Of a stretch of 64,000 bases of DNA, positions 9,751 to 61,648 are shown in pieces. The DNA is from Candidatus Nomurabacteria bacterium. GTDB taxonomy: Bacteria; Patescibacteriota; Minisyncoccia; Phycocordibacterales; UBA10002. Location of the stretch: the NCBI GenBank assembly GCA_943354745.1, contig CALRDB010000002.1:3679-67678 (forward strand), read 5' to 3'. The notes below the pieces were generated by a model. The model saw only the letters and a list, made by a program, of their open reading frames with translations, searched no databases and was not told where the DNA came from. The first letter of the stretch is position 1; every line of letters starts with the position of its first letter. The translations under genes were made by a program, and so were the position numbers.

Positions 9751-9875
9751 ACTAAATCAGTATATAGGAATTAATTAAAAAGTCTTTCTTATTCGTAACC
9801 ATTCGTTGGACTCCAATTCGTCCCACTAGTGGAAAAATCAGAATTTCTCACTACGGGATAACTACTTTCGTATCG

Positions 9876-11000
9876 CTATTTTTCGTGCTTGAGTGCAATT
9901 TCCAAAATTTCGCGCGCGATTACCTCGGCAGCGTCGGTCTTTGCGAAATGAAGCGCATGCTCCGACATCTGCGTGACTCGCTCCTCGTTGCCGAGAACTC
10001 TCTGTATTTGGTCTTTAAGGATGTTGACCGTGAGGTTACTCTCTTCAAGGACGTCTGTCGCTCCAGTTTCCGCGTACGCATACGCGTTTTCGCGCTGATG
10101 GTTGCCGTTCGAATCGGTGATGGGAATAAGAATTGACGGCTTACCCCACATGGCTATCTCGAAGATAGTCGAGCCCGCCCTTGAAATAACCAGATTGGTC
10201 AGCTTCCCCGCCGAAGAAACTTGTGCAGTCGAAAGGTAGCCGAACGGATGATAACGATGCTTAAAAGTATTATCTTGCAAAAGAACCTTGGACCGTGCAA
10301 GCATATCGGCAAAATGCACTTCCCCTGTCTGGTGGATAACCTCGTACTTTTGCAGTAACTCCGGAAGCGCCTGCAGTATTGTTTCATTAAGCACAAGCGA
10401 GCCAAGCGACCCCCCAATAACAAATATAACCTTAGTGTCTGGTTCCAGTCCGAACCCTGCCCGATTCGCCAGTAACGGAGACAACAGTTCATGCCGGATA
10501 GGATTGCCCGTATATGCTACGCGCCCAGCAGGAAAGAAAGTTGCAGCCTGAGGAAAAGAAACCGCGATACGAGTAGCAAACTTCCCCGCCCAGAGATTGG
10601 TCCTCCCTGGTACCGTGTCAGACTCATGAATGATGACAGGGATTCTCCAAAACCGCGCAGCAAAAAGTGCAGGAAAACTTCCAAAACCTCCCTTACCCAC
10701 TACGACATCAGGAAACAAACGATACACAAGCACCAGAGCCTTGAGTACCCCAAAGATAGTTTTAACAACATCAAAAACATTCTTTATTGAAGCATAACGA
10801 CGAAGTTTACCTGCCAAGTTGGGAAGAAAAGTAATTTCGTTTTCAAACAATAAACTCGAGTTATACGCTTCGGGTGCCATGAAAAAAAGCTGCGGAGCAA
10901 TAAGCCGCTCCTTTTTTGCGATGAGTCGAACCTCTTCCGCGATTGCAATAATCGGATAGAAGTGTCCCCCTGATCCCCCGCCGGTGAATAATATTTTCAT
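9876..11000 (-). CDS. murG: UDP-N-acetylglucosamine--N-acetylmuramyl-(pentapeptide) pyrophosphoryl-undecaprenol N-acetylglucosamine transferase
   Basis: MKILFTGGGSGGHFYPIIAIAEE N-terminus and GT28 length. Confidence 0.88.
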   Translation of the reverse strand: MKILFTGGGSGGHFYPIIAIAEEVRLIAKKERLIAPQLFFMAPEAYNSSLLFENEITFLPNLAGKLRRYASIKNVFDVVKTIFGVLKALVLVYRLFPDVVVGKGGFGSFPALFAARFWRIPVIIHESDTVPGRTNLWAGKFATRIAVSFPQAATFFPAGRVAYTGNPIRHELLSPLLANRAGFGLEPDTKVIFVIGGSLGSLVLNETILQALPELLQKYEVIHQTGEVHFADMLARSKVLLQDNTFKHRYHPFGYLSTAQVSSAGKLTNLVISRAGSTIFEIAMWGKPSILIPITDSNGNHQRENAYAYAETGATDVLEESNLTVNILKDQIQRVLGNEERVTQMSEHALHFAKTDAAEVIAREILEIALKHEK

Positions 11001-11098
11001 ACTATACGAAAATACGAATTATACGAACATGCGAATTGCTGCGAATCCTATTCTCATTCGTAATCATTCGTAGGATTTCAATTCGTATTTTCGTATGT

Positions 11099-12190
11099 CT
11101 AGTTCTTCTGATAACGCGAGATATTAAGCAGTATGCCAGCCTCAAGAAGCGTAATCACCAAAGCTGTTCCGCCATGACTTACAAACGCCAGCGGAAGACC
11201 CGAAAGCGGAATGAGTGCTAACATTGACGCGATGTTCATAAACGCTGAAGCCCCTATGAGTATAACAATACCAATCGCAAGGAGTCCACTAAAAGTATCA
11301 GGGGAACGCGAAGCGATACGGAGCCCCCGAAGCAGAAGCGCGAGAAAAAGCATAATAAGAACGAAGCTTCCTATGAAACCGAATTCTTCCGCAGCTACGG
11401 CAAACACCGAATCCCCAATCGGTTCGGGAAGATATGAAAATTTTTGCACGCTTTGACCGAATCCTTTACCACTAAATCCACCAGAACCTATCGCGATAAG
11501 TGACTGCTGAACCTGATAGCCGGCTCCAAGCGGGTCTCCGGCAGGATTGAGAAAGGTTATAAATCGTTCTTTCAAATAAGGTCTGTACAAAACCAAACTT
11601 GAAAGACCAATGATTCCAATAAGCACAATTACACCGAAATGACGTAGACTGCCTCCAGCCACTAGAAATATCGCAAGGATTGCAAAGACCAGCACTGCGT
11701 AGGTATCAGTATCAGGTTGTAACAAGAGAAGGAATCCCGAAATACCAAAGAGAGCAAGCAGCGGAAGAAGACCGAAGGAAAACGTCTGAATTTTTTCCTT
11801 CGCTCCCGCGAAAAAGGCTGCCGCATACACAATAAACGAAATTTTCAAAAGCTCGGCAGGTTGGAATGAAAAGCCAAATACCCCAATCCAACGTCGGGCT
11901 CCACCATGCGACACGCCTATCCCTGGAATGAACACAAGAGCGGTAAAGACAATAGAGAAGAGAAGGAATGCAAGTGTATAACGTCGAAAATATTTATAGT
12001 GAAAGGTAGATACCAGATACGCGATCCCTCCTCCGAGAACCACCGCAATAAGTCGTGAGGTGGCAACATCCCCGAAGCGTGCCCCGTCCCGCGCCAAGAG
12101 GCCGATTGAGGCAGAGATGAATATCAAAAATCCTCCACCCACGAGCCCTGCTAAAATCCCTAGCAACCATTTGTCGACAGGCTTGTCCAT
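11099..12190 (-). CDS. ftsW: SEDS-family peptidoglycan glycosyltransferase FtsW/RodA
   Basis: Multi-TM; GFSGKGFGQS…YLPEPIGDSVFAVAAEEFGFIGS. Confidence 0.85.
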   Translation of the reverse strand: MDKPVDKWLLGILAGLVGGGFLIFISASIGLLARDGARFGDVATSRLIAVVLGGGIAYLVSTFHYKYFRRYTLAFLLFSIVFTALVFIPGIGVSHGGARRWIGVFGFSFQPAELLKISFIVYAAAFFAGAKEKIQTFSFGLLPLLALFGISGFLLLLQPDTDTYAVLVFAILAIFLVAGGSLRHFGVIVLIGIIGLSSLVLYRPYLKERFITFLNPAGDPLGAGYQVQQSLIAIGSGGFSGKGFGQSVQKFSYLPEPIGDSVFAVAAEEFGFIGSFVLIMLFLALLLRGLRIASRSPDTFSGLLAIGIVILIGASAFMNIASMLALIPLSGLPLAFVSHGGTALVITLLEAGILLNISRYQKN

Positions 12191-12193
12191 GAT

Positions 12194-13252: not shown

Positions 13253-13313
13253 GAAGTATCAAATTATGAATTTTGCATATCAGGCTTTTTGATTCTGCCG
13301 CACGTATTGCGCT

Positions 13314-13492
13314 GTCGTACCACAGGAGTACTAATTGTCTGCTAATTCGCTTCGCTCAAAGCATCCAATGTCGTACCACAGGAGTACTAATTGTCTGCTA
13401 ATTCGCTTCGCTCAAAGCATCCAATGTCGTACCACAGGAGTACTAATTGTCTGCTAATTCGCTTCGCTCAAAGCATCCAATGTCGCCCACAG
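13314..13492. repeat. Tandem repeat, 56-bp unit x 3.2 copies (unit gtcgtaccacaggagtactaattgtctgctaattcgcttcgctcaaagcatccaat)
   Basis: Perfect copies starting 13314, 13370, 13426 plus partial 13482; last copy encodes the final 9 codons and stop of the carboxypeptidase gene. Confidence 0.9.
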
Positions 13493-16463: not shown

Positions 16464-16508
16464 GGGGATCCAGAATCAACTGGATTCCCGCCTCCGCGGG
16501 AATGACAA
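16464..16508 (-). repeat. Hairpin repeat family copy a (CTGTCATTCC-stem-loop-GGAATCCAG)
   Basis: rc: tgtcattcccgcggaggcgggaatccag, nested in a larger palindrome. Confidence 0.7.
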
Positions 16509-17952: not shown

Positions 17953-18300
17953 ACGCAAATTTATAAATAAAAAAGTCCTTACAAAATCACCCCAAAGGAT
18001 GGTTTTGTAAGGACGTTCTTACGAGCGTGGTGCCACCTTACTTTCCCTTCTGTCATTCCCATGAAAATGGGAATCCAGTCGGGCTTCTTCGTTAGCTATA
18101 GCGGGCTTTCCCGAAGGGTTCTACTGTGGGCGAGCAGCTGTCTTCAACTGCTTTAGCCCTTTTCTTCCCTTAGCCTGCCCCGACAAGTCTTCTTCGTCGG
18201 GACTCAGCCGTGTCATCGGCTTCAGTGCTTTCATATACTGTACCACGTGTGAGGAAAAAGAAAAGCCGGTCTTCCCCACCCAGGAGGAAGCCGGCCTTGG
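17953..18300 (-). promoter_or_regulatory. T-box riboswitch leader of aspS (antiterminator A1 GUAAGG/CCUUAC with 7-nt bulge UGGCACC; terminator 17968-18014); 5' boundary uncertain
   Basis: Minus-strand RNA: AAGGUGGCACCACG matches T-box AGGGUGGNACCGCG in 12 of 14 positions; UGGC complements tRNA-Asp GCCA end; 12-bp terminator GUCCUUACAAAA/UUUUGUAAGGAC + U6 immediately before AUG. Confidence 0.65.
18050..18080 (+). repeat. Hairpin repeat family copy b
   Basis: ctgtcattcccatgaaaatgggaatccagtc. Confidence 0.7.
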
Positions 18301-20208: not shown

Positions 20209-20238
20209 CTGGATTCCTGCTTACACAGGAATGACAGG
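20209..20238 (-). repeat. Hairpin repeat family copy c
   Basis: rc: cctgtcattcctgtgtaagcaggaatccag; about 30 nt upstream of trpS start. Confidence 0.7.
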
Positions 20239-20381
20239 TATTAGAGATTAGGTGAATTAGAAATTAGACATTACTTTACAGTTTGACGGGAAGTTCAACA
20301 ATAAAGGTAGACTCTTTCCCTTCTCCTCCCGATTCGGCGAGGGAGGATACCTGTAGCCTCTACATAGTACCGTAGAGATCA

Positions 20382-24589: not shown

Positions 24590-24813
24590 AGCTATACGAA
24601 AATACGAATTACACGAATCAACGAATGGCTACGAATAAGAATCGAAAATAAGTATATATCAAGAAGCTTCTACGCTAGATTGACAGAGTATACATTATGT
24701 TCTACTGTTTTGTCCAGCCGGTTTAGAAATCAACAAAAAAATGGCCGGGTAAGAGGATGGCACCAAATGAACAATTATAAATGTAACAAGGGGTGTCTTT
24801 TTTTATGCAAAAA

Positions 24814-28182: not shown

Positions 28183-28239
28183 AAATACGAACGCGGGGTT
28201 CGTACTTTCGTATCGGTTTTGGGAGTTCGTATTGTTTGA

Positions 28240-31033: not shown

Positions 31034-31144
31034 ATCAGCTATTTAAATATCGAATACTAAATCTCGAATATCGAAAAATACTCAATATTTTAATAGTGAA
31101 TATTTAAGATTTTTTAGAAATTAGATATTAGATATTTCATTACT

Positions 31145-32930: not shown

Positions 32931-32946
32931 CGCTAAACGAACGCAA

Positions 32947-32982: not shown

Positions 32983-33089
32983 ATACCTTCTACAAAAATC
33001 ATTTGTCCACAAAGACAGTAGCTTTGTTCTGTCAGTTGATAGACGTAAGGAGATTCGTATATTCGTACCCCATTCGTAATTCGTAGTGA

Positions 33090-34119: not shown

Positions 34120-35430
34120 ATGTCAGAAGTAAAGAAAAGACTCTCAACCGAACCGTATAAAGGCGTGCGGGATTTCTATCCCGACGACTTTGCGGTGGAG
34201 AAATATATTTTCAGTGTCTGGAGTGATACCTGTCGGAAATTCGGCTATGAAGAATACACCGCTTCTATCCTTGAACCGGCGGAGCTCTACCGCGGGAAGA
34301 CCAGCGACGAAATTGTAAACGACCAGACCTATACCTTTACCGACCGAGGAGAACGTGAAGTTACCCTCCGCCCCGAGATGACCCCCACCGTAGCCAGACT
34401 CATTGCGGCGAAACGCAAGACGCTCTACTTCCCTGTCCGCTGGTTTTCTCTTCCGAATCTGTTCCGTTATGAGCGTCCTCAGCGTGGGCGCCTGCGTGAG
34501 CACTATCAGTTGAACGCCGATATTTTCGGCGTCGCCGGCATAGACGCAGAGACGGAAATAGTTTCGCTCGCCTATGAAATAATGCGTTCATTCGGCGTCG
34601 CTGACGGGAACTTTGAAATCCGTATTAACAGCCGGAAGGTGATGAACTACATCATAGAGCACCTCCTTGGTCAGACGGGTGAGGAAGGCAAAAAAACGGC
34701 ACAGCTCATTGACCGACGCGCGAAGATGGAGAAAGAAGTGTTTGAAAAGGCGCTCAGTGAACATCTGAAGGAAAAAGATACACTTCTTCTGACGCTTCTC
34801 AATTCCAAAAACTTTGAAGAATTCGTATCGCATCTCCCGAAAGTGCCTTCGCTTGAAGAAGCGCTTAAGGAAATTGACTCACTCAAAGCGTCACTTGAAG
34901 CACTGGGTATCATGAATGTTGTTTTTGACCAGACGCTGATGCGCGGATTTGATTACTACAGTGGTATCGTGTTTGAAGTATTTGATAAGAATCCGGCAAA
35001 TCCCCGCTCGCTGTTCGGAGGTGGCCGCTACGATAACCTGCTGGACCTGTTCGGCGTGGAGAAAGTACCGACCGTCGGATTCGGTATGGGTGATGTGACA
35101 ATCCACGACGTTTTGGAAACCTACGACCTGCTTCCGAAAAAGTTCCCTCCACCCGCAGACATCTATCTCTCCGCGTTTGACGCGAATTTCAAGGGTTACG
35201 TAAACGATATCGCGCAGAATCTCCGCCGAGCGGGAGTCCGTGTTGTCGTAGACTACGGAGCCGGCAAGGCGGGCACGAAAGTTGCAAATGCCGACCGCGC
35301 CAGAGTTCCCTTCTTCGCTCTTATCGGTGAAGCAGAAAAAGCTTCGGGACACATCAAGGTGAAAAATTTGGAGACCGGCAAAGAAGCTTTGCTTACGGAG
35401 GACAAAATTGCCGAATATATAAAAAGTTGA
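34120..35430 (+). CDS. hisS: Histidyl-tRNA synthetase
   Basis: KGVRDFYPDD, class II motifs, GGGRYDNL. Confidence 0.9.
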   Translation: MSEVKKRLSTEPYKGVRDFYPDDFAVEKYIFSVWSDTCRKFGYEEYTASILEPAELYRGKTSDEIVNDQTYTFTDRGEREVTLRPEMTPTVARLIAAKRKTLYFPVRWFSLPNLFRYERPQRGRLREHYQLNADIFGVAGIDAETEIVSLAYEIMRSFGVADGNFEIRINSRKVMNYIIEHLLGQTGEEGKKTAQLIDRRAKMEKEVFEKALSEHLKEKDTLLLTLLNSKNFEEFVSHLPKVPSLEEALKEIDSLKASLEALGIMNVVFDQTLMRGFDYYSGIVFEVFDKNPANPRSLFGGGRYDNLLDLFGVEKVPTVGFGMGDVTIHDVLETYDLLPKKFPPPADIYLSAFDANFKGYVNDIAQNLRRAGVRVVVDYGAGKAGTKVANADRARVPFFALIGEAEKASGHIKVKNLETGKEALLTEDKIAEYIKS

Positions 35431-35540
35431 TACGAATGCAACGAATTATCATGCGAATGCTACTAATCCACGAATCCCGACTCTCTTCATTCGCATATTC
35501 GAAGCATTCGTGCATTAATTTGTAGCATTCGTATCATGCT

Positions 35541-37079: not shown

Positions 37080-40016
37080 CTATGTACTACTTACTCTCTT
37101 GAGCTTGCACCACTCGCACTCAGCTTCATCGCAAAACTCGGTCATAATCCGGCCTGACCAGACTGAATCAATAAGCGACTGGATATCTTTCTTGAGCGTC
37201 TCAATATCAACATCGGTGATAGGAAGTGAGACGATACCGCACTTCCCTTTCTTATCGGGAATGACGAACACAAGAGATGGAACAATTTCCTTACCTTTAT
37301 ACTTCGGATCTCCGTGGAGAAGGTATTTGTAAAATGTGAGCTGTCTAAAATAACTACCATCGGAGGACTTAGTCTCTCCTTTAATCGCAGCAACCGTCAT
37401 TACCTCCTTAGTCTTATAGTCAAAGACGCGCACCGTATCTTCTATAACAAGAACCGCGTCGAGCTTGCCGTGAACGGGAATGGTCACAGCGTTCCCTTCA
37501 TACGTCCCCGAAAACTGTCCTTCACTCCAGCTTTCGGTGACCGCCTTCACTACTCCGAAATGGTTCTGCAGCTCGCGCGCGATTACGTTCGCCTCTTCAA
37601 ACAATTCCTTCTTCACCGCTTCTTTTTCGAAAATGGGAAGTAGTGAACGGCTAAGGTACGAAGAAACAGAATCTTTAAAAACATGTTCAATGTGTTCGAC
37701 GCTTCGGTCGGTATCCGCCCAGATATACGCAAACGCTTCGTGTACTGCAGTTCCTTTCTCCGCACTCGCTGCAGGAGCCTGAGGAATCTTGAGAATACTT
37801 TGATACACGAAAGAGCTTGGACACGTAAGAAAGTGGTTCAATGCGGTCACCGACAGTCCTTTTTCTAGCAAAATTGTTTTCGCAAGATCAACTATTTTTT
37901 CTCCTTTTCTATTTCGTACGTTCGTCTCTTGTTCGTAGTTCGTAGCAAGGGAAGGTGTCTCTACGATCGGCATGGGGGCAGAAATACGCTGTACACATTT
38001 TGGATCAAGCTCATCGATAAACCGTAATGGGGTTTCCACTTTCCCACCCGCTATTTCCTCTGGAACAAGGAGTACCGCATGTTTCTTTGCGCGAGTCAAG
38101 GCGACATAGAAGAGCCTCCGTGCGTCACGGGTTGCGTCTTCGTCATCTTTCGCTTTCTCTGGGAGTACGAAATACACGCCTCGTGCTCGGCCCATCCACG
38201 AACTTTCGGTCACAAAGGGGATAAAGACGTACTCAAACTCAAGTCCTTTGCTTCCATGAGCCGTCATTGCCCTCACCTGTAGCTCAGGAGAACCAACACT
38301 CACCTTCACGCTCCTCTCTTCCGCTGAGGCCTTATACGAGCGAAGCTTCCGAAGAAGTTCTTGGGTGTCCTGAATATCACCCTCTCGTATAAGATATTCA
38401 GCAAGTTCTGTAATACCGCGCCACACTTCCATAGCGGAAGGATCCCTGATGGCGAGTTTTACGAATCCCGATATTTCAGCTGCGAACATGATATAGGCAA
38501 GAGCTCCATCGCTCGACAGTTTATTTTGAAGATGACGAAGTGCGGGAATCTTTTCCACAACTCCTTGCCTACCGCTCCGCAATGCTCGAATACACTCTAC
38601 ACCTCCCTCAAACGGAAGATCCCAGAGTCCCACAGCGATAGTCTTCGCAAGCGCCTCAACGTTTGTCGTGTCCGATAGATATTCGATAAGGGTGAAAAAA
38701 AGATTTCCGATGGGGTGATTAAAGATGTTTACTTTCCGCTCAGAAGAAACAGGAACGTGCTTTGACTCTAAAAAACGAATCACTCGTTCAAGGTCGCGAT
38801 TTGTCTTGGTAATGATCGCCACCGTACTCCCGCTCTCTTGTGCAAGAATCTTCTGAATCTCTTGTGCAAGATATTCGAGCGTGGCGGATTCCTTCCCTCC
38901 AACAAGATCAATAGGCCGGACGGCTTCACTCCCCGACGCAGACAGCCGTATACGGAGATGTGTATTTTCTCCGTCTTCATAGTTATGTTCGATCATGGAA
39001 AATGCCCCATCGAGTAGATGTTGGTGTGATCGATAATTTTTCTCGAGTGCAATAATCTTCATATCCTTCCATGCATTTTTGAATGTACGGAAGTTTTCAA
39101 CCGATGCCCCCTGAAAGCGGTAGATCGCCTGTTTTTCATCTCCAACAACGAAGAGGTTTGGTGATGTAAAGAAATCAGCCAAAAGACGAATGAGCAGGTT
39201 CTGCGAATCGTTGGTGTCTTGATGTTCATCTACAAGCAGATAGAGAAACTTTTCCTGCAAAAGACGAAGGAGAAGCGTGTCTTTTTGAAGCGTGGTTAAT
39301 AGTTCTATAATGAGGTCGTCAAAGTCGATACGCCGTTCTTCCCTCTTTCGTTGTTCATATCCCGCATACACATCAGCAAACAACACTGTCCGTTCACACT
39401 TCTCGATCTGTTTTTCCGCATCTGCTTTTAGTTTCCCTTTCGTAGCGCCACGGGTTGACATAGATTCCGGATCAGCCTTGATGTGCTTGATCTGTTCTTT
39501 CGCAAACACGCGAATCATATCGGGTGAAAGTGCTTCGCGTTTGGCGTCGCTTATCGCACCAAGTATTTTCTGCACGTAAAAATCAGGATTACCAAAAGGA
39601 CGAAGTGATGAAAACGATTCATCCTTTAAAATTGAACGAATAAGACTTTCAGCATCGATATCGGTCATCTGTGTCGTTCTGTCCAATTGCGTGAAATGGT
39701 CTTTGTGCTCCGCGATAACAGACGCCGCAAATCCATGGAAAGTATGTAAATGCACTTCATCAGCACGCGACCCCATGAGTGCGCGAAGTTTCTGGCGCAT
39801 CGCCTTCACTCCCGCTTCGGTAAAGGTGATAGCCAAAATGCCCGATGGGGGCGTATCGGTCTTACGGAGAATCTGCGCGATACGAAGCGTCAGTACTGTC
39901 GTCTTCCCTGTCCCCGGCCCCGCTATGACCATGACAGGGCCGTCGATAGTATCGACAGCCTCCCTTTGTTTCGAGTTCAACTGCTTGTACTGAGCATTAA
40001 ATACATCTTCGGACAT
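37080..40016 (-). CDS. UvrD/PcrA/AddA-type ATP-dependent helicase fused to C-terminal PD-(D/E)xK nuclease with 4-Cys cluster
   Basis: Walker A AGPGTGKT; UvrD motifs; C-terminal HGKLDAVLVIEDTVRVFDYKT and CDEAECEWC; ORF-track start is GTG, ATG at MSEDVF. Confidence 0.8.
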   Translation of the reverse strand: MSEDVFNAQYKQLNSKQREAVDTIDGPVMVIAGPGTGKTTVLTLRIAQILRKTDTPPSGILAITFTEAGVKAMRQKLRALMGSRADEVHLHTFHGFAASVIAEHKDHFTQLDRTTQMTDIDAESLIRSILKDESFSSLRPFGNPDFYVQKILGAISDAKREALSPDMIRVFAKEQIKHIKADPESMSTRGATKGKLKADAEKQIEKCERTVLFADVYAGYEQRKREERRIDFDDLIIELLTTLQKDTLLLRLLQEKFLYLLVDEHQDTNDSQNLLIRLLADFFTSPNLFVVGDEKQAIYRFQGASVENFRTFKNAWKDMKIIALEKNYRSHQHLLDGAFSMIEHNYEDGENTHLRIRLSASGSEAVRPIDLVGGKESATLEYLAQEIQKILAQESGSTVAIITKTNRDLERVIRFLESKHVPVSSERKVNIFNHPIGNLFFTLIEYLSDTTNVEALAKTIAVGLWDLPFEGGVECIRALRSGRQGVVEKIPALRHLQNKLSSDGALAYIMFAAEISGFVKLAIRDPSAMEVWRGITELAEYLIREGDIQDTQELLRKLRSYKASAEERSVKVSVGSPELQVRAMTAHGSKGLEFEYVFIPFVTESSWMGRARGVYFVLPEKAKDDEDATRDARRLFYVALTRAKKHAVLLVPEEIAGGKVETPLRFIDELDPKCVQRISAPMPIVETPSLATNYEQETNVRNRKGEKIVDLAKTILLEKGLSVTALNHFLTCPSSFVYQSILKIPQAPAASAEKGTAVHEAFAYIWADTDRSVEHIEHVFKDSVSSYLSRSLLPIFEKEAVKKELFEEANVIARELQNHFGVVKAVTESWSEGQFSGTYEGNAVTIPVHGKLDAVLVIEDTVRVFDYKTKEVMTVAAIKGETKSSDGSYFRQLTFYKYLLHGDPKYKGKEIVPSLVFVIPDKKGKCGIVSLPITDVDIETLKKDIQSLIDSVWSGRIMTEFCDEAECEWCKLKRVSST

Positions 40017-42010: not shown

Positions 42011-42017
42011 ACCCGGA

Positions 42018-45356: not shown

Positions 45357-45378
45357 GTCGATTGACCTGCAATGGAGA

Positions 45379-47356: not shown

Positions 47357-47385
47357 TGTCATTCCCTTGGAAAAGGGAATTCAGT
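47357..47385 (+). repeat. Hairpin repeat family copy f
   Basis: ctgtcattcccttggaaaagggaattcagtg. Confidence 0.65.
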
Positions 47386-48380
47386 GCTGTAGTCCAAATA
47401 TAAAAAGCGCCTCGACGAATCGAGACGCTTATTCCTGACCCAACAAAAGAGCACCTCACATTGGATGAGAATACCCGAACTGACAATACCCGACCGAGAA
47501 GGACCAAAATTGAAGCGTTCCCGAAAACGAGAACGCTTCCCCGCACAGGACACTACCTGACTGCACTGAAACCAACCACTCCGAAATTGAAGCGTCCCGA
47601 CGAATCGAGACGCCTCATCCGGACTCGAGCATTCACAAACGAACAGGACGGAACCTGACTGAACGACGCCGCATGCCACCTCAATCGGCATTCCGCTTTA
47701 GAAACGGAATACCCCCGTACCTTACCTTTGAAATGAGAGGCAAAATTCGAGCATCCCGACTAATTCTCGGGATGCTCGCCTGACAAAGGTGTACCATGAT
47801 TGAGCGAGCCGGCGAAAACCGACTCGCTCCCGAACAGAACTCTACGTCACGCCTCCGAAACAAACGACTGCCTACGGGGCGATACAAAACAGGTGCATAC
47901 GAAGACTTGCCGTAATTGCCGAACACCTTCGAAAAGGCGCTCGGCTCCACACCGAACCTGTTCTCGCAGGACACTACAACAGAAATGTTGGCTTGAGCTA
48001 ACTCATGCAAGCCACACGGCACATCTGATGACCTCAACTGAGCGAGCCGGCCGAAACCGACTCACCCCCGAACGTAAACAGACAGCTCTGCACGGGACAA
48101 TAGCGCACCCAACCTAAACCGACACCACCTGACCATAATTACCAAGCTCCTACGAACAAGAGCTTGGTTCCCGAGCGTACCAAGAAGCGCGAAACAGAAC
48201 AGTTGACTGCGAAACATGACTTTAGAGAACCACAATTGTCGAATCCGTGCTCGCACGGATTCGACCCGAGGAATGACTCAAACAAACATACTGGACTGAA
48301 CGGAACTTTACACTTGTGTGCCCCAAAATAGGTGACCGCAATCACTGCGACAACGAATTGTCGAAGTACGAAATACCGAG

Positions 48381-48432
48381 TGCAAAGTAACACAGAAATA
48401 TAAAAACGGCAAGTCTCGTGAAAGACCTGCCG
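48381..48432 (-). promoter_or_regulatory. Terminator (48403-48432) plus conserved motif TGCAAAGTAACACAGAAAT (48381-48399), module copy 3
   Basis: Minus strand: GGCAGGUCUUUCACGAGACUUGCC-GUUUUUAUAUUUCUGUGUUACUUUGCA. Confidence 0.55.
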
Positions 48433-49135
48433 TATGACTACATTACCTGACCTTACCCTACCCAACCGTACCTTGCCTCAAAGAACAAGACCTAACCGTG
48501 CCACATTCTCCCGCCCCTCTTGCGAATGGCGGGACCCGTGCCATAATCGACCTTACTGAACCTTACCTAAGAGGAACCGGCGGAAGAATCCTCTGCCGAA
48601 ACTTGACGAGCACTTTCGGAAAAGTGCTCGTCCCATGCTGCAGTTCAGATTACTACGCGTCACCTGACCGCGCGAGACGCTACGTTACCGCACTGTAGCG
48701 AGCCGATTGTTATCGGCCCGCTCCCGAACAAAACCCGACACCACGTTAGCCCGCAGAACTGAACCAAGCTTGAGCGTATTAGTGGACAGCTCCGCTAGGA
48801 GCTGTCCAACCGATACCTTTTCATAACGCACTGAACAGTGGATTACAAAACGGGACACTGCACCACCGGACCGTAATCAGTATCCCGACTTTCAGCGGGA
48901 TACTCCGGTACCGAACAGGACAGGGCCATACTTAGGAACACTCAAAATGAGCACACCTGACTTGACCGTACCGCAATTGCCAAACTTCTGCGAACAGAGG
49001 TTTGGCTCCACACAGCGCCTGTGTTCACAGGACTACAGGGTACAAAACCTGACGATTGAGTACGACAGGATACGAGACCGAAATGGTCGGCGGAAATGCT
49101 TTTCCGCCGACACCGACAACAGACTGAACTCTGTC

Positions 49136-49167
49136 AAAAAAAAGCGGAGGTACCGAAGCACCTCCAC
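49136..49167 (-). terminator. Strong rho-independent terminator (minus sense) after hypothetical gene
   Basis: Minus strand GCGGAGGUGCUUCGGUACCUCCGC followed by U8. Confidence 0.7.
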
Positions 49168-49188
49168 ATGACTGTCACTTCTTCGTCG

Positions 49189-50010
49189 TTACTCGGTAGC
49201 TACCGGAGCCGGACTGAGTCCCGCCACGCGTTTTTCGAGAACCTTACTCGACATTCGGCCGTTGTCCTCCGTCTTCGGAGCATGCTTCTCAGCCTGGCCG
49301 ACGTACTTGATTTCAATGTCGTCATTGATCGGTTCGATCTTGATTACTTCGAACTTCGAAACACGAAACTGTCCGTAGGAACCGGGCTTGTTTGGGGCCG
49401 AACCGCGCCAGTCGCCGAGACCGGATTTTTCGCCGGCCTTCTGCCAGAGCTGGAGCACGGTGTCGTCAGAGAAGTCAGGGTCCTTGAAGGTGAACTCAAT
49501 CTCGCACGCCCACTTCGGAATTAAAGGGCGGACCGTACGATTGGACCCCTTGGTCTGTTGGTTGACGGTACGACCCGCGTGAACTTCCCACGGAGTGTTC
49601 GCTTTCGCCTCCTCCTCCCCCATCGGCAACGCCTCGGTCGCAACTTCCCCGTTCGCATCGAGCCCCTTGAAGGCATAGAAGCGTTTGGTGAAGGTCACGA
49701 TGCTGGGGATTTCGGTTCCGCCACCTGACTTGGTGATGGCCGACGTGCGCTTCCCTTTCTTGACGGAGATGTGCTTCCCGCCGTTACAGAGGGTGGCCAT
49801 GAGGTTGTCCATTGGCCAGCCCATTTCACCGTTCGGTCCGCGATAGAGCTTGGCCTGAGCAACCACAACATCTTGGATGTCGCCGCGCTTGGGCGTTGCC
49901 GCTTTTTTGCCGCCGATCTCTTCAAGTGTACCGAGAAGCATGGGGTTTTGGATTGCTGCGGTTACTGAATCCAGTAACATCCGCACTGTCTTCTGCTGTC
50001 TTTCTGCCAT
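49189..50010 (-). CDS. Hypothetical protein (273 aa)
   Basis: Long ORF with balanced composition directly downstream of dnaG; no recognised family. Confidence 0.5.
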   Translation of the reverse strand: MAERQQKTVRMLLDSVTAAIQNPMLLGTLEEIGGKKAATPKRGDIQDVVVAQAKLYRGPNGEMGWPMDNLMATLCNGGKHISVKKGKRTSAITKSGGGTEIPSIVTFTKRFYAFKGLDANGEVATEALPMGEEEAKANTPWEVHAGRTVNQQTKGSNRTVRPLIPKWACEIEFTFKDPDFSDDTVLQLWQKAGEKSGLGDWRGSAPNKPGSYGQFRVSKFEVIKIEPINDDIEIKYVGQAEKHAPKTEDNGRMSSKVLEKRVAGLSPAPVATE

Positions 50011-50116
50011 AATTACCCTTACTTAATGCACCGAATCGCCGAAGCGAGCCGGTTTTGTTATGTAGTTGTCGAAGAGCTATAGATTCGGGCCGAAAAGCCT
50101 TGTCTGTAAGCCCTTG

Positions 50117-50227: not shown

Positions 50228-51982
50228 TTAAGAAGTCGTAGTAAACCGGTGGGATTTGAGGGCTCCCAATTTTTGGGTGAGTTCTTTACACTTTGCCAGC
50301 AGGGCTTGCGTCTCTTCTTTATTCCCGTCGTGCTCTGATTTGGCCAGTGTGTCCATTGTCTCAGAAAGAAGCATCGTAATATGCTCTTGTTCCAAATGAC
50401 GAAGAAGCTCCTCTTCCTCACTTACACCGGGCGAGGTATCCCCGTAGAGCGCTTCGGCTTCAAGCAAGAGAACATCAGCAAGTGCTTTATAGTGCTCTAC
50501 TTTTTTATCGAATACCTCCTTTTCAAAGATGCGGAGAAGTGCAGTCTGTAACCGCTCGAACAACAACGTATTCTTCTGCGACTCCGAAAGAAGATAAATA
50601 CTAAACACCCTCCGTTCAAGTGTATTCGAACGAACCGGTGCGGTAGCTTTACGTAATTCAGGTATTTCTTTTTCTCCAGCGACAGCCGGTACTTTTTTAA
50701 ACGCCTCCCAGAGCGCATCTTCCCGAAGACCGCTTTTCTCGGCGATTACTTTTATAAAATGGGATTGCTCAACAGGAGAAGTGAGAAGGCGGAGAAGCGG
50801 AAGTAGCGTCTTCTCAATCGCGAGCGCACGTTCCCTTCCCTCCTTGGAAGCATTGATAAGGTTAAGAAGAAGAAAATCAATAACGTGCTTTGATTCTGTT
50901 ACCGCCCTGTCCCATTCCTTTGGCTCCTTCAAAATAAGTTCAGCGGGATCTTTGCCTCCCCCGATCGCAATAACCTTCACATTCATACCAAGGGCGAGCG
51001 CCAGTTTTATCGCACGCTCGCTTGCTCGCACACCCGCACTATCCGCATCAAACGAAAGCAAGAGATTTTCGGACAGTCTTTTCAGACGCACAAGTTGTTG
51101 TTCGGTGAGTGCTGTCCCCGAAGATGCGACAGCATTCTCATGACCAGCTTGATGCACCATAAGAAGGTCCACTTGTCCTTCAACCAGTATCGCCGCGTCC
51201 TTTTGTCGTATCACGAGTTTCGCGCGGTCAAATCCATACAGGACTTCGGACTTATTGAAGAGCACGGTCTCGGGGCTGTTGATATATTTGCCTGTCTTTC
51301 CATCATCAAGTCTGGGGAGAATACGTCCTGAAAATGCGATAACTCGTCCCGCACTATCCCGAATCGGAAACATAATCCTCCCCCGGAAAGTATCATAGTA
51401 TTTCTTAGGACCTGACCCTGTGTGCCCTACAGAATCGGTTTGGTTGGCAATTTTAATCAAGCCGACCTTTCCCATTTCTTCCGGTGTAAATTTTTCCCGA
51501 GTGAGATAGTCGAATAGTTGCCTCCACTCCGCGGGGGCAAATCCTACTCGCCAGTCTTGTAGCGTTTTTTGGGTGAGACCTCTTCCGTCTATGTACACCT
51601 TCGCTTCAGCTGTAGCCCGCAATGTTTCTTCATAAAATCTCGTCGCTTTTTCGAGACAGAGATACAACCGTGCGTATTCGCTCTGTACCTTTGGATCAAG
51701 CTTAGTCAGGGTGACTCCCGCACGTTGCGCGAGCACCCGTAAAGCACCAATAAAGTCGAGTCCTTCAAACTCCTGCACGAACGTGAAAATATCCCCCTTT
51801 GCCTGACACCCGAAACAGTAATAGGAGTTGCGAGCAGGCGAGACAAAGAACGACGGCGACTTCTCATTGTGGAATGGGCATTTAGCCTTATAGGAAGTTC
51901 CTGCACGCTCAAGCTTTAGGTACGATCCAACCACATCGGCGATACCTAATCTTTCTTTAATTTGTTCAACCGGAGTGGACAT
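50228..51982 (-). CDS. dnaG: DNA primase
   Basis: Zinc-ribbon CPFHNEKSPSF…CFGC; TOPRIM domain; 584 aa. Confidence 0.9.
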   Translation of the reverse strand: MSTPVEQIKERLGIADVVGSYLKLERAGTSYKAKCPFHNEKSPSFFVSPARNSYYCFGCQAKGDIFTFVQEFEGLDFIGALRVLAQRAGVTLTKLDPKVQSEYARLYLCLEKATRFYEETLRATAEAKVYIDGRGLTQKTLQDWRVGFAPAEWRQLFDYLTREKFTPEEMGKVGLIKIANQTDSVGHTGSGPKKYYDTFRGRIMFPIRDSAGRVIAFSGRILPRLDDGKTGKYINSPETVLFNKSEVLYGFDRAKLVIRQKDAAILVEGQVDLLMVHQAGHENAVASSGTALTEQQLVRLKRLSENLLLSFDADSAGVRASERAIKLALALGMNVKVIAIGGGKDPAELILKEPKEWDRAVTESKHVIDFLLLNLINASKEGRERALAIEKTLLPLLRLLTSPVEQSHFIKVIAEKSGLREDALWEAFKKVPAVAGEKEIPELRKATAPVRSNTLERRVFSIYLLSESQKNTLLFERLQTALLRIFEKEVFDKKVEHYKALADVLLLEAEALYGDTSPGVSEEEELLRHLEQEHITMLLSETMDTLAKSEHDGNKEETQALLAKCKELTQKLGALKSHRFTTTS

Positions 51983-52072: not shown

Positions 52073-52867
52073 CTAAGGGGCCCCAGAAATGGGGTCCTTT
52101 GTGCTTTTTAGGGCCTCTTTTGAGCTTTCTTCGCCGTTCCAGCAGATAAAATCCCGCAGTTCAAAGATGTCGAAAATAAACAGACCTTCCTTCACCAAGG
52201 CGTTCAGCTCGCGGGAAACTCTGCCGGCTGTAGCGAATAATACAACCTTTTTACCGTTTACAAGTAGGCTTTTTATCGGGTCGGCAAAGTCGCTATCCCC
52301 GCTCCACAAAACAAACGTGTCGACATTATCCCGCAGGTCATCTATCCGCATATCCGTGCCTATCTCAACGTCAAAATTGCATTTCCTGTCCTCTATGGAG
52401 TAAATACCTTGTGCATTCATCTCCTTGAACTTATTGTTGAGAAACTCAACTGTTTCGATACTGTACTTCCTGAGCAGAGATTTCCTCATGAATTTCTTCA
52501 ACAAATCCGGCGACTGCAAAGAAATACTTGAGACGTCGATTGGCAACTTCATTATCTTTACCGACTTAGTTCGTATTTCGTATTTGCATCGCTCTAACTT
52601 TTTTATTTCTTCTCGGGAGTGGGGGTCGCCGACTAGCTCTCCTTGATACCATTTTATGGAACCCACACTCTCAAAAGATTTGAGAAACTGCTTCAAACGA
52701 TTTGGACTGACATGCCATTTTAATTTTTCCGACCAAGGACGGACATTGGCAAAATCAATATAGGTGTTCGTTTTGCCAACGAAAAGGCCATCCACCTTCT
52801 GCACCGTAGGCATACGGTCCTCTCTCTTTGCCAGCTCTTCAATTCTTTGGGTCTTGGGCGTGAACAT
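52073..52867 (-). CDS. NYN/LabA-like domain protein (predicted RNase)
   Basis: C-terminal LWSGDSDF signature of NYN domain. Confidence 0.6.
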   Translation of the reverse strand: MFTPKTQRIEELAKREDRMPTVQKVDGLFVGKTNTYIDFANVRPWSEKLKWHVSPNRLKQFLKSFESVGSIKWYQGELVGDPHSREEIKKLERCKYEIRTKSVKIMKLPIDVSSISLQSPDLLKKFMRKSLLRKYSIETVEFLNNKFKEMNAQGIYSIEDRKCNFDVEIGTDMRIDDLRDNVDTFVLWSGDSDFADPIKSLLVNGKKVVLFATAGRVSRELNALVKEGLFIFDIFELRDFICWNGEESSKEALKSTKDPISGAP

Positions 52868-54122: not shown

Positions 54123-54214
54123 AACCTATAACATATCACCAAATGACCCATAACAGAATAACCCAAAACCAGTAAGGTTTTGGGTTATTCAGTCATTCGG
54201 TTATAAGTGATGAG

Positions 54215-57200
54215 TTATTCAGTTGATTCTTCGAACGCAGGCTCGGGGTAGAGTTCTTTCTGTAACTTCTCGATCATAGCTGCTTTCGGGCCTCCCTTGA
54301 ATCCGGTTCCTGCAGGGATAAGGCGACCGATAATGACGTTCTCCATAAGACCTCGGAGTGTGTCTTTGCTACCTCGGACCGCCGAGTTGATGAGTACTCG
54401 TGTGGTGTGTTGGAAGGATGCGGCGGAAAGGAAGCTGCGACGAGAAAGAGAGACTTCCGAAATACCCATAACGAGTGAGTCTGCCTTTGCTTCTTCCCCT
54501 CCTTGCTCCTTGGCAAGATCATTTTCACGAGAGAGCGTGAGTGGGTCAACAACATCTCCGACAGAAAGCGTCGTACCTCCTTGATCCTTCACCTTTCGGC
54601 GGAAGAACATCTGACGAACAATAGTTTCAATGTGTTTTCGTGCCACAGTTTCTCCTTGCAAGTCGTAAGGCTTGGTGACTTCAGTGATGATGTATTCCTG
54701 CGCTCGTTCACGTCCGCCGTATTTGAAGAGCTCGTCGATATCAGCCGCACCGTCGGTAAGCAAGTCGCCTTTCTTCACTCGGTCTCCAACCTTTACGAAT
54801 GGGATACGGTTGTAGCTGGTGACATACTCTGATTCGCTCTTCTTCTTGGTGGTCTTAGACTTATCGGCGATGTCAGGAAGTACCGAGATAACTTTTTCTT
54901 TTCCAAGATCTTTGATGTCGATAACCGTACCGTCAACTCGGGCAACTACAGCCGGACTTTTCGGAGCACGCTTCTCAAAGAGTTCCTCAACTCGAGGAAG
55001 ACCCTGTGTGATATCGCCACCGAGAGATGAGACACCTCCCGTATGGAAGGTACGCATTGTAAGCTGAGTTCCTGGTTCACCGATGGCCTGTGCGGCAACC
55101 GTTCCGACAGCCTCACCTAATCCAACCACTTCGTGTTTACCAAGATCAAGTCCGTAGCATTTCTGACAAATACCCGAAATGCTCTTACAGGTAAGCGGTG
55201 ATCGCACCAGTACTTCCTTCACTCCCGACTCCTGTACTTGGAGTCCATCGAGTTTCGAGAGCAGGTCCCCTTTCTTGAAGAGTACCTTGTCGTCATCGAT
55301 AATGTCAGCTGCCATGAATCGTCCACGAATATTCTTACCAAGCTGCGTATCTGCACCAGAACCAGTACTCCGGGCAATCTTGATGCCATCTTTAGTGCCA
55401 CAGTCCTCTTCGGTCACCATCACATCTTGGGCGACAACGAAAAGCTTTCTCGTAAGATACCCTGCTTTCGCGGTGTTAAGCGCGGTGTCAGTAAGACCTT
55501 TGCGCGAACCGTGCGTCGTGATGAAGTACTCAATCGGAGTAAGACCTTCCTTCATACAGGACAAGATTGGAAATTCGATTGTCTCACCAGCGGTATTTTG
55601 GATGAGACCCTTCATACCGGCCATTTGCGTAATTTGAGAGAACGAACCTCGAGCACCGGAATACACCATGTCGTACAGTGAACCATTCTTGTCGAGTGAA
55701 TCGGGAATCAGTTTTTCCACCTCACTTTTAGCGGCATGCCAGATTTCAATATTCTTTCGAAGGCGTTCATCTTCCGAGAGAAGACCATTACGCCATTGTT
55801 CAAATGCCAATTCAGACTTTACCTTGGCTCGATCAATAACTTCTGACTTGCCTGGAGGAACCTTCACATCATCAATACCCCACGTAATACCGGAGTAGGT
55901 AGCATATTTGAACCCGAACGCCTTAATGCGGTCCATAATGGTAGGAATCTCAGCGATACCGTAGCGGTTGATGAGGTCGTCAATCAGAGCCGACATACTT
56001 TTTCGCTCCATTTCTTTGTTGATGTACGCGTAATCGTTTGGAAGTACGCTGTTGAACAAGAGTCGTCCTACCGTTGTCTCAAACACTTTACCGTCAAATG
56101 CTTTATATTTTTCCTGTTCGGTGGCGAGCACTTTGATCTTCGCCCGGAAGTCGACAACATCGAAATCCCACGCCGTAATCGCGTTGTTCGGTCTCGCAAA
56201 CATTTTGCCTTCACCTTTTGCTCCGGGGAATACTTTGGTCATCCACCAGCAACCGAGCACGATATCGAGCATTTTTCCGGACACAATAGGATCACCTGAA
56301 CCTGGCTTCAAAATGTTCTTGTGAGCAGCCATGATTTCACTGGCCTCCATCTGTGCTTCCTCTGAGAGCGGTACGTGTACGGCCATCTGGTCTCCGTCGA
56401 AGTCCGCATTAAAGGCGGTACACACGAGCGGGTGGACGTGGATAGCGTTTCCTTCAATAAGTACGGGCTGGAAGGCCTGAATACCTAGACGGTGAAGGGT
56501 GGGTGCGCGGTTAAGCAGTACATATTTATTTTTGATGACATCTTCAAGAATCGCCCAGACTTCGGGAACTCCTTCTTCGATAAGACGTCCCGCGCCACGA
56601 ATATTAAAGGCGAGCTCTTTCTGAAGAAGTTTACAAATTACGAACGGCCGGAACAATTCAAGCGCCATGTGTTTCGGAAGACCACACTGGTGGAGCTTTA
56701 GTTCAGGACCAACCACAATAACAGAACGACCTGAGTAGTCGACTCGTTTACCGAGAAGGTTTTGGCGGAAGAGTCCTCGCTTGCCCTTCAAGTTGTCAGA
56801 AAGAGATTTAAGCGGACGTCGTTGTGACGCCGTAAGCGCGCCTGCGGCACCGGCACCATGGCGGATAGAATTGTCGATGAGTGAGTCGACAGCCTCTTGA
56901 AGAATACGTTTCTCGTTGCGCAAAATAACATCAGGAGCACTGATCTCCTTCAATTTGCGAAGACGGTTATTCCGATTAATCACGCGTCGATACAGGTCAT
57001 TGACGTCTGAGGTCGCATAGCGCCCACCATCGAGCGGAACCATCGGTCGTAGCGCGGGAGGAATAACGGGGATACTCGTAAGGAACATCCACTCAGGGCG
57101 GATCTTCGCGGAAATCATAGAACGAACAAGAGAAAGTCGTTTGTTCATGCGATCGCGTTCGACAGAACTTACCTTGTCGATTTGTTCCTCAAGTGATTTT

Positions 57201-57901: not shown

Positions 57902-57938
57902 AGCAATACGAATTACAAATCTTTACGAATATACGAAG

Positions 57939-60900: not shown

Positions 60901-61187
60901 ACTTTTAGCGGCGCTTCATAGGAGAGCTTATTTTGCTTCGCGTAAAATTCATCAAACTTGGGTTCAGAAAGCTTGAAACCAGTAAAATCAAGTTCGAACT
61001 TTTTGCCAGAGTAGTCCTTAATAGAAGAGAACTCGGAAAAGACCTCTCGGAGCCCGTTTTCGAGCAACCACTTAAACGAATCAACCTGAGGCTCCACGAG
61101 ATTAGGGAGTGTCGTGAGCGGAGTCTTATATGCACCGAAGTACTTTTTCGGCCATGCCTGCAAATTAGACTCTTTCTGTGTGCTCAT
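57939..61187 (-). CDS. rpoB: DNA-directed RNA polymerase subunit beta
   Basis: Full-length conserved beta subunit (1082 aa, lacks lineage insertions). Confidence 0.95.
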   Translation of the reverse strand: MSTQKESNLQAWPKKYFGAYKTPLTTLPNLVEPQVDSFKWLLENGLREVFSEFSSIKDYSGKKFELDFTGFKLSEPKFDEFYAKQNKLSYEAPLKVTVRLKNKIVGSVKEQELFMADFPLMTSHGTFVISGIERVIVPQLARSFGVFFTAEEVKGRKYFGAKIIPARGAWIEIETDVDGALYVRIDRKRKFAVTSLLRIRGAKDEKHMLSLFSTLPQAEPHIKATIAKDHAKTTDEAYIEIHKRLRDGEIGSVENAKEFINSIFDPERYDLSKVGRFRFNKRFGKAMDEKEMDRRTISLEDLVAIVSKVILLNNTSDAAEDDIDHLGSRRVRFVGELFQQKIRVGMAQIKRNVQDRMSTVESDVTLPVNFISPKPLQARIKEFFTTNQLSQFMQQENILSELEHLRTLSALGPGGLTRERAGFEVRDVHPSHYGRLCPIHTPEGPNIGLILRLSTYARLNSFGMIETPYAKVKNGKITKEVQYLNALEEENFKIAHAATKYDTDGTILVEEVEVRLNGKPELIAREEVDYIDVATNQAFSVATSMIPFLNHDDANRALMGSNMQKQATPCLTPEAPLVATGIEETAARDTGRLIIAEEDGVISHIDARRIVLKSTKGKEKEYPLVNFSRTNGFTSFHQRPTASLGQEVKRGDVLSDTSSSDRGQMALGQNILIAFMSWSGSNYEDAIIISERLVKDSRFTSIHIEEFVVNVRDTKLGPEITTHDIPNVGESKLKNLDEDGVVRIGAEVRPGDILVGKITPKGETQLTPEERLLRSLFGEKARDVKDTSKRMENGKRGRIIGVKVFSREKGDKLESGIIKRIHIEVAELRAASVGDKFAGRHGNKGVVSKVLPEEDMPYMADGRPVDMILTPLGVPSRMNLGQILELHLGLAASTLGYQAIVPPFAGATDTEIKEELVKAGINSNGKMKLFDGRSGDKFSQDIAVGYMYIMKLHHMVEDKIHMRSIGPYSLITQQPLGGKAQGGGQRFGEMEVWALLGHGAAYTLREMLTIKSDDILGRSAAFDAIVKGERISQMNAPASFSVLLNTLRGLALDVELKKEGETGEEIPAKRSSTYERKRERSR

Positions 61188-61236
61188 AGTTAGTTAGCGT
61201 ATTAAAAACTAGTAATTCAGACTCCTCTTCACATAT

Positions 61237-61266
61237 GCAAACGAAAAAGGCCCCTTATCTTGTTGG
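61237..61266. terminator. Bidirectional terminator upstream of rpoB
   Basis: aaaaaggccccttatcttgttgggtctttttt. Confidence 0.5.
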
Positions 61267-61648
61267 GTCTTTTTTGGTTGCAAAATAGTATGATTATGTG
61301 GTGCTTAGCAAGATATATAGGACAGGCCTTATATAAAGCTCCCCGCTTTATACAAGATCCTTGGCTCGGAAATGAAAACACAAAGCCATTTTCACTTCTC
61401 TCACCCCACGTCGCTTATAATGCTTGCCCGCAGGGACGGAACTCACTCTTTCCGCAGGTGCCAAGGAGTCTAGCTTAACCCTCCTTTTTTGTCAATAGCT
61501 TCGTTATACACAGGTGGCGGTTTTTGCTTTCGCTCTCACCATACTCGCTGAAATACGCGGAGTACGAACATCCAGACACCTTAAGTGTGCCTCGTGTTAC
61601 AATGTCGTTGTCTTTCATTCTCATATTCGTACTAATTCGTAAGTTCGT

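Follow-up and report, generated by a model that had tools for sequence, protein, structure and literature searches.

The window analyzed here is a 64,000-nucleotide (nt) stretch of a Candidatus Nomurabacteria genome (GenBank assembly GCA_943354745.1, contig CALRDB010000002.1), and all window counts given below refer to these ~64 kb of one genome. Clusters of the hexamer TACGAA and its complement TTCGTA recur in it at gene boundaries and inside an open reading frame (ORF). An initial annotation, made from the sequence alone, had located such arrays at eight sites, described them as lying in upstream regions, and read them as a lineage-specific promoter element or the operator of a global regulator. 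The units are present at all eight sites, and the genes named beside them are correctly identified: gltX, murG, ftsW, dnaJ, tsaC (Sua5/YrdC), a gene for an RRM protein, an exonuclease gene (RNase_H_2 fold), and a major facilitator superfamily (MFS) gene. By contrast, the description as upstream regions fits only part of the set, since four arrays lie directly 3′ of stop codons, namely those of murG, a DUF7282-like gene, the RRM gene, and hisS. Our analysis added an array within a helicase ORF as well as arrays or palindromes built from the units ATTAG, TCGAAT, and ATAAC, none of which had been listed before; the coordinates of all these features are collected in Table 1.

The distribution of the units is far from random. 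The window contains 77 copies of TACGAA or TTCGTA, compared with 37.6 ± 5.6 expected from 100 dinucleotide shuffles, none of which reached 77. Their density is 4.4 per kb in intergenic DNA but 0.74 per kb in coding DNA, an approximately sixfold difference, and intergenic DNA alone holds 35 copies as opposed to 6.4 ± 2.4 (at most 14) when the intergenic segments were shuffled 300 times. Clusters with at least three copies inside 45 bp number seven, while 200 shuffles gave a mean of 0.03 and a maximum of one. These counts bear out the initial annotation in that the motif is non-random and intergenic, with a frequency unlike that of either coding or shuffled DNA. The consensus of 44 units reads aTACGAAt. 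Arrays comprise three to nine units each and are dispersed over many loci; within them, the units stand head to tail, and neighbors of the same orientation are mostly spaced 7–11 nt apart (mode 8), with variable linkers of 1–5 nt. For comparison we used related loci from other genomes, which carry L-numbers (L013, L180, and so forth). A strict scan of 71 such loci (956 kb) detected ACGAA arrays only in L013 and L019, and a looser scan together with direct reading added ACGAA-type units in the closer relatives L153, L180, L198, and L199, in keeping with the proposed lineage specificity of the motif.

Table 1. Short-unit arrays and palindromes in the window (positions are those of the window).
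Feature	Position	Strand	Description
Full copy, ftsW–murG spacer	11001..11098	.	98 nt; + strand with five CGAA then four TTCG units; 17-bp perfect outer arms ATACGAAAATACGAATT
Full copy, hisS–exonuclease spacer	35428..35540	.	~110-nt imperfect palindrome; four CGAAT then four to five ATTCG units
Single-arm remnant, murG–gltX spacer	9786..9872	-	Four ACGAA units on the coding strand, 3′ of the murG stop codon
Single arm, dnaJ upstream	24590..24641	-	Five TTCGT units (coding strand), the last 5 nt before the dnaJ ATG; spacing 8, 9, 8, 10
Array between DUF7282-like gene and tsaC	28183..28239	-	Three TACGAA then one TTCGTA unit
RRM-gene 3′ untranslated region array	33054..33085	-	Four TACGAA units (coding strand), starting 4 nt after the stop codon
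Array within UvrD/PD-(D/E)XK helicase ORF	37913..37944	-	Four units; hypervariable linker; peptide ATNYEQETNVRN
rpoB–rpoC spacer	57902..57938	-	All 37 nt: three TTCGTA and one TTTGTA (coding strand), 5 nt before the rpoC ATG
MFS array	61626..61649	+	Three TTCGTA (coding strand); the last overlaps the MFS ATG, at the distal end of a divergent spacer of 460 nt
ATAAC/GTTAT palindrome ('TGAATAAC')	54128..54218	.	Spans the whole gap between the rpoC stop codon and the start codon that follows
ATTAG array	20240..20267	.	Four units; ATTAG family also in L180, L198, L027
Divergent spacer, truB / 84-amino-acid ORF	31044..31135	.	Three TCGAAT units (a TACGAA variant) at 31044-31075; ATTAGA units at ~31116-31135

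Two elements in the window display the full form of the repeat, an imperfect palindrome of 98–113 nt in which four or five units run one way, a short center follows, and four or five units run the other way, such that the strand reads TACGAA...TTCGTA. Both occupy spacers without canonical terminators and span from 0–3 nt of the upstream stop codon to 3–6 nt before the downstream ATG. The copy between ftsW and murG had been described as a near-perfect 98-bp palindrome; its length and its palindromic character stand, but it is imperfect, with ~35 pairs in total, and only its outer 17 bp pair perfectly, forming terminal inverted repeats. Its ends lie 2 nt from the ftsW stop codon and 3 nt from the murG ATG. 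In the copy between hisS and the exonuclease gene, the hisS stop codon TGA itself takes part in the pairing, and the element ends 6 nt before the exonuclease ATG.

Judged from the linkers and whole elements that they share, the arrays are related by copying and not by convergence. The hisS–exonuclease palindrome (35433-35534) is 91% identical over 102 nt to the ftsW–murG spacer of L180 (9894-9995), whose MurG is 69% identical to that of the window, and we thus find the same element at a different locus in a different species. Similar relationships connect the ftsW–murG palindrome of L151 with the rpoC–dnaG palindrome of L198 (~77% identity over 77 nt) and the rpoB–rpoC palindrome of L198 with the exonuclease–dsbA spacer of L199 (~72% identity over 88 nt). 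Within the window, the murG and dnaJ arrays have the spacing 8, 9, 8, 10 in common, and the 26 nt adjoining their start codons are alike but for one base, linkers included. The initial annotation had reported a 19-mer shared by these two sites; the sharing is confirmed and proved to be longer, extending over 11002-11027 and 24592-24617. The distal dnaJ units (24619-24641) match the units upstream of gltX over 23 nt (96%), and the inner three units of the murG–gltX array are also homologous to an inner stretch of one arm in the ftsW–murG copy. L019, at 48% MurG identity, has an identical 19-mer composed of two units and their linker TGGCT. The occurrence of whole elements and of multi-unit blocks with their linkers at unrelated loci and in different genomes argues for copying rather than for independently selected binding sites.

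Comparison of orthologous sites indicates that the full copies sit in what were formerly very short gaps, which they fill from stop codon to start codon, and that they turn over fast. The ftsW–murG spacer measures 0–16 nt in distant relatives; that of L001 is 66 nt long and lacks an array. Four different palindromes occupy it elsewhere: the TACGAA palindrome in the window, one of the hisS–exonuclease type in L180, an ATAAC palindrome in L151 and L152, and one with CGAAT and CTAAT units in L153. In L198 and L199, which are syntenic at hisS–exonuclease, the spacer contains ATTCG, TTCGT, and ACGAA units in arrangements that cannot be aligned. In the rpoB–rpoC gap, the window has TTCGTA units, L198 a 103-nt palindrome of the AAAGT type, and L200 39 nt of plain AT-rich sequence with no array. 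Behind the RRM gene, the window carries four units and ~95 extra nt in the 3′ untranslated region (3′UTR), and L198 and L199 have a single ACGAA and no array. The four ACGAA units inside the helicase ORF are kept in the L198 orthologue and missing from P0002/L199.

Scanning de novo for 5-mers of any kind that recur with a period of 6–16 nt, we found arrays and palindromes of the same build composed of other units, namely ATTAG, ATAAC, and AAAGT. The ATAAC/GTTAT palindrome downstream of rpoC is homologous to the L198 rpoC–dnaG spacer and to the L151 ftsW–murG spacer, and AAAGT-type arrays were found in L003, L015, L027, and L198. In the truB divergent spacer, the last ATTAGA unit ends 10 nt before the ATG at 31145. 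Given other unit families of the same build in relatives, the phenomenon is clade-wide, and TACGAA is one of several "alphabets." As a separate observation, perfect DnaA-box 9-mers (TTATCCACA) adjoin short-unit arrays in L027 (~7240) and L002 (~5010).

The full copies are predicted to fold into hairpins, with folding z-scores from −3.8 (murG copy) to −6.5 (hisS–exonuclease copy), and pairing is maintained as the sequence diverges. Between the two copies of the hisS–exonuclease type, in the window and in L180, all 40 predicted pairs remain intact, with two wobble-type changes and a single compensatory one. The latter affects the local stop codon, which pairs as TGA/TCA in the window and TAA/TTA in L180. 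In the ATAAC family, four of the 31 predicted pairs show compensatory changes. None of the 11 substitutions that separate the window and L180 copies falls on the 40 CGAAT/ATTCG core positions (p = 0.0033). Since these cores are also the paired segments of the hairpin, this result fits selection for a hairpin and selection for a recognized core equally well. We also applied the core-versus-linker test to the RRM, helicase, murG, and dnaJ arrays, but these had been found by their cores, which biases the p-values; the hisS–exonuclease copy compared with L180 is the one case free of this bias. In a strand test based on the asymmetry of G·U pairs, sense and antisense strands folded about equally. 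Single arms alone do not fold (z about 0).

Such single arms are found at dnaJ, rpoC, and the MFS gene, in the RRM 3′UTR, in the murG–gltX spacer, and in the helicase ORF. On the coding strand, TTCGTA units end 0–7 nt 5′ of the ATG at dnaJ, rpoC, and the MFS gene, and TACGAA units come after the stop codons of murG, the RRM gene, and the DUF7282-like gene. The RRM array lies in a convergent spacer and precedes a bidirectional terminator (32945-32978), and its spacing (8, 11, 7) is the same as that of the array within the helicase ORF. The array between the DUF7282-like gene and tsaC resembles an intrinsic terminator, with a 16-pair hairpin followed by a U run (−21.4 kcal/mol, z = −5.4). Two further TTCGTA copies, 7 nt apart at 52570-52582 within the ORF of a NYN-domain protein, may be due to chance.

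The reading that we favor, with about even confidence, is that the TACGAA clusters represent copies and fragments of a small non-coding dispersed intergenic repeat family in a Shine-Dalgarno-free Patescibacteria genome, resembling sequences of the short tandemly repeated repetitive (STRR) type and repetitive extragenic palindromic (REP) doublets forming hairpins (REPINs). According to this reading, the repeat would colonize very short gaps between genes and be tolerated, or used, in polycistronic mRNAs. A full copy between co-transcribed genes would give rise to a long imperfect mRNA hairpin ending a few nt before the next AUG; this hairpin may act in the manner of REP and STRR hairpins, as a barrier to exonucleases or as a site for a double-strand RNase, and could thereby uncouple the stability and expression of the neighboring cistrons. 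Single arms would be decayed or partial copies. Rfam models gave no match over the arrays at the gathering score, with only sub-threshold matches to long-hairpin miRNA precursor models, and BLAST searches against phage and plasmid records gave none either. A 20-mer of the hisS–exonuclease element had no viral match. A scan of viral sequences for three spaced TACGAA units gave over 120 hits, most of them perfect microsatellites from unrelated viruses; perfect microsatellites of the heptamer TTACGAA, in some cases arranged as inverted arrays, are common in unrelated viral contigs (L030, L036, L046, L049, L075, and others). We found such repeats described nowhere for this phylum in the searchable literature, a negative that amounts to no more than absence of evidence.

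Several observations weigh against a dispersed hairpin repeat. There is no target-site duplication at the flanks of the murG, hisS–exonuclease, or L180 copies, where the flanking sequence prolongs the palindrome rather than showing a direct duplication. No transposase, REP-associated tyrosine transposase (RAYT), or other mobilizing enzyme was detected by a Pfam scan of ~60 window ORFs or in the Pfam lists of L148, L195, L198, L199, and L200. The arrays are identical in three near-identical assemblies of the strain (99.94–100% identity, including GCA_964851075.1), which differ elsewhere (6751-6760, 4831, 13273, and 13486), and hence give no sign of current mobility. The arms consist of short units in direct repetition instead of the short palindromes of REP sequences, and a hairpin function alone leaves their periodicity unexplained; nor does the equal folding of both strands point to RNA rather than DNA as the selected form. 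Several single arms that do not fold end 0–7 nt from a start codon even in long spacers (224 nt at dnaJ, 460 nt at the MFS gene), and this adjacency suggests that single arms have a role of their own or that the repeat has a target preference. Finally, the census of copies rests on the ~64 kb of this genome. The identity of the arrays across the three assemblies also rules out phase-variable contingency repeats. Nearly all differences between the assemblies are found in the 10 nt at 6751-6760, upstream of a XerC/D-like integrase gene (5734-6681), and this variability could reflect a small inversion or a variable hairpin loop.

Among the alternatives, the proposal of the initial annotation that the arrays are lineage-specific core promoter or UP-like elements appears highly improbable to us. 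The motif is enriched in intergenic DNA, and some units overlap −10-like hexamers (e.g., GTTCGTATAAT in the murG copy), but the unit is unlike −35 and −10 hexamers, scans with sigma-70-like consensus sequences found 13 matches with 15.8 expected and 6 with 7.5 expected, no excess over shuffles, and arrays occur in both orientations relative to genes as well as downstream of them. The proposal is contradicted most directly by the sites in the RRM 3′UTR ahead of a terminator, in the helicase ORF, and in the 37-nt gap inside the rpoBC operon. A leaderless promoter within the array was also rejected, as the unit would stand at −11 to −5 and is unlike a −10 hexamer, and −10-like hexamers lie too close to the ATG; a promoter for an extracytoplasmic function (ECF) sigma factor with a CGTA −10 element was dismissed for lack of a consistent −35 element and because its spacing to the ATG is too short. 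The same three kinds of site speak against the operator of a global regulator, as do orthologous spacers that swap families or lose their arrays. Orthologous spacers with other units, other arrangements, or none are not what gene-specific operators would show, and the arrays are probably not the operator of a regulon. We hold it unlikely, albeit worth considering, that the units are boxes of an abundant sequence-specific DNA-binding protein, of the ribbon-helix-helix type or nucleoid-associated, with the arrays serving as operators or landing pads and their duplication being secondary. Such a protein would be consistent with a strongly kept 6–8-nt core between varying linkers, with an 8-bp modal period in direct and inverted arrangements, with the TACGAA unit occurring also in genomes of 48–51% MurG identity, and with arrays that end 0–7 nt from start codons; the units are found in both orientations about equally often in mRNAs, which fits double-stranded DNA better than single-stranded RNA. 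The avoidance of core positions by substitutions supports it as well, but the test is confounded by the conserved cores doubling as hairpin stems. Moreover, operators would be unusual in a 3′UTR, an ORF, or a 37-nt intercistronic gap, family swaps between close relatives would require regulator swaps for murG or rpoC, and spacings of 7–11 nt and more are poor for cooperative binding on a double helix. Selection on binding sites alone leaves unexplained the linkers and ~100-nt elements conserved between loci, and Pfam scans of the ~60 window ORFs yielded no candidate protein.

Two further readings assign the arrays a function at gene junctions. One would have each unit family (TACGAA, ATTAG, ATAAC, AAAGT) be the box of its own small DNA-binding protein and the arrays at gene boundaries a clade-wide "punctuation" in Shine-Dalgarno-free, terminator-poor Paceibacteria, where bound proteins might insulate or uncouple neighboring genes at stop–start junctions, and boxes would spread by copying, with box and protein co-evolving as is thought for REPINs and RAYTs; this is a speculative and quite improbable scheme. 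The other, which we judge rather improbable, is that the arrays are cis-acting mRNA elements selected for expression without Shine-Dalgarno sequences, with U-rich UUCGUA arrays immediately 5′ of the AUG as unstructured leaders that load ribosomes or enhance translation and palindromes as processing sites that give a new 5′ end near the AUG. Shine-Dalgarno-like words are indeed no more frequent before start codons (13.6%) than in the background (16.5%), amounting to no signal. The nucleotide at position −1 is T in 53% of the window gene starts, and a modest peak of TAnnnT, located from −14 to −12, points to a leaderless state of some mRNAs. Coding-strand TTCGTA ends 0–7 nt before the ATG at murG and the exonuclease gene as well as at the three single arms named above, with the same arrangement in L180 and L199; the end of full copies lies a few nt before the AUG; and translational coupling or transcript stability has been proposed for STRR sequences (PMC2670836). 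On the other hand, upstream of gltX in the window, L013, and L019 the units stand in the opposite orientation (ACGAA), arrays also occur in a 3′UTR and inside an ORF, and their presence is not conserved at orthologous genes. A clade-wide test of all unit families, based on crude ORF-based gene calls, found no general preference for start codons, with arrays adjoining either gene boundary, and the equal folding of sense and antisense strands gives no preference for RNA. Two related candidates were rejected. An alternative ribosome-binding site pairing with the 16S rRNA tail does not agree with several unrelated unit families at the same position and in both orientations (the window itself has no rRNA), and pairing in trans of 3′UTR UACGAA with 5′ UUCGUA arrays founders on mismatched spacing patterns and on the absence of the 3′UTR array in relatives.

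The window also carries a second dispersed repeat, a 26–27-nt hairpin formed by TGTCATYCC, a variable covarying stem with a 4-nt loop, and GGRATCCAG. Its copies are located at 16482-16508 (-), 18052-18078 (+), 20211-20237 (-), and 27542-27568 (-), and further ones are found in L003, L004 (eight copies), L013, L018, L151, L153, and L177. The hairpin is intergenic; the copies at 16482 and 20211, the two for which flanks were read, lie upstream of genes. Its own flanking motifs stay conserved between genomes whose MurG identity is only ~50%, with covariation in the inner stem, and it corresponds to no Rfam family. Other features include a 56-bp unit repeated 3.2 times with 98% identity (13313-13492) between mraY and its upstream gene, part of which resembles a stretch of L024, and a palindrome with 22-nt arms (TATACCCTCACAC...GTGTAGGGGTATA) at 33588-33632, 2 nt before the ATG of a 126-amino-acid ORF at 33635. 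An S-adenosylmethionine (SAM) riboswitch at 27297-27397 (-) lies upstream of metK (26116-27171). Between rpoD (40116-41387) and dnaG (50228-51982), the region ~41400-50100 has a G+C content of 0.53, as opposed to 0.45–0.48, and contains many small ORFs without Pfam matches together with a DEAD/ResIII helicase (45379-47256). The syntenic L198 and L200 have dnaG and rpoD side by side, which gives this region the look of an inserted island.

The genomes of Patescibacteria are tiny and streamlined, leaving hardly any non-coding DNA to spare, and little is understood of the signals that govern their gene expression. Several families of ~100-nt hairpin repeats persist here at the stop–start gaps of essential genes (ftsW–murG, rpoB–rpoC, and rpoC–dnaG). 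Their exchange between species and the maintenance of their pairing leave two options, a selfish element that is active in a minimal genome or operon punctuation of a generic kind. In practical terms, the repeats offer a handle on mRNA processing in uncultured bacteria and a possible strain-typing marker, as STRR sequences do in cyanobacteria, and they call for caution in motif-based prediction of regulons in metagenome-assembled genomes.

Dispersed intergenic palindromes of 100–150 bp that are co-transcribed with their neighbors and form hairpins are represented by the Correia, ERIC, RUP, and Rickettsia palindromic elements, the last of which are also known in frame inside ORFs. The array inside the helicase ORF linker recalls the latter. 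The perfect 17-bp outer arms of the ftsW–murG copy are terminal inverted repeats such as those of miniature inverted-repeat transposable elements, which derive from DDE transposons. Unlike repeats that resemble these, the elements described here show no target-site duplication and have internally periodic arms, and no related insertion sequence was found. Tandem short boxes of variable number in direct or inverted order are likewise familiar from ribbon-helix-helix proteins, including the 8-bp metboxes of MetJ, the 7-bp heptads of omega, and the ACTC boxes of ParG with their 8-bp period. Those arrays, however, are strictly spaced and limited to partition sites or a small number of promoters in defined operons or plasmids, whereas the arrays in the window are dispersed, variably spaced, and found also in a 3′UTR and an ORF. 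CRISPR and TIGR arrays, the latter with 36-nt units that contain two 8–12-nt spacers (PMC12045711), are ruled out by the period of 7–11 nt, the linkers of 1–5 nt, and the occurrence of three to nine units at many loci.

The closest resemblances are to STRR sequences and REPINs. In STRR sequences, 7-bp units repeat in tandem and form hairpins, as they do between hupS and hupL, and no function is known for them (PMC2670836); they are also reported inside the RNase P RNA gene (Vioque, 1997). Like them, the arrays studied here belong to several families (TACGAA, ATTAG, and ATAAC, with AAAGT in relatives), reside in non-coding DNA including gaps between co-transcribed genes, form hairpins (in the ftsW–murG, hisS–exonuclease, and rpoC-downstream spacers), and also appear within a functional gene. 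In tandem repetition the likeness is partial: short units of ~7 bp stand head to tail, but with a 6–8-nt core, variable linkers, and a period of 7–11 nt in place of strict 7-bp repeats, and Tandem Repeats Finder reports just one of the arrays. They differ in that the arrays typically make up the two inverted arms of a ~100-nt palindrome, different genomes have whole elements in common, and the host belongs to the Patescibacteria (Paceibacterota) rather than to heterocyst-forming cyanobacteria. REPINs are hairpin doublets of ~89 bp that form several families per genome and whose singlets are read as decaying remnants (PMC3337134). The likeness extends to extragenic hairpin doublets of ~90–110 nt, with the ftsW–murG and hisS–exonuclease copies each comprising two inverted modules, to the presence of several families in one genome, to singlets beside doublets, to 3′ and intercistronic sites, and to a hairpin that is kept while other sequence drifts. 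By contrast, each REP module is an imperfect palindrome of 20–40 nt with a conserved tag, GTAG or CGTC (PMC3733652), whereas the arms here are direct arrays of aTACGAAt without an internal palindrome, and no RAYT (Y1 HUH transposase) was found among the window ORFs or in the Pfam lists of the five relatives. The elements thus conform fully to neither the STRR nor the REPIN definition.

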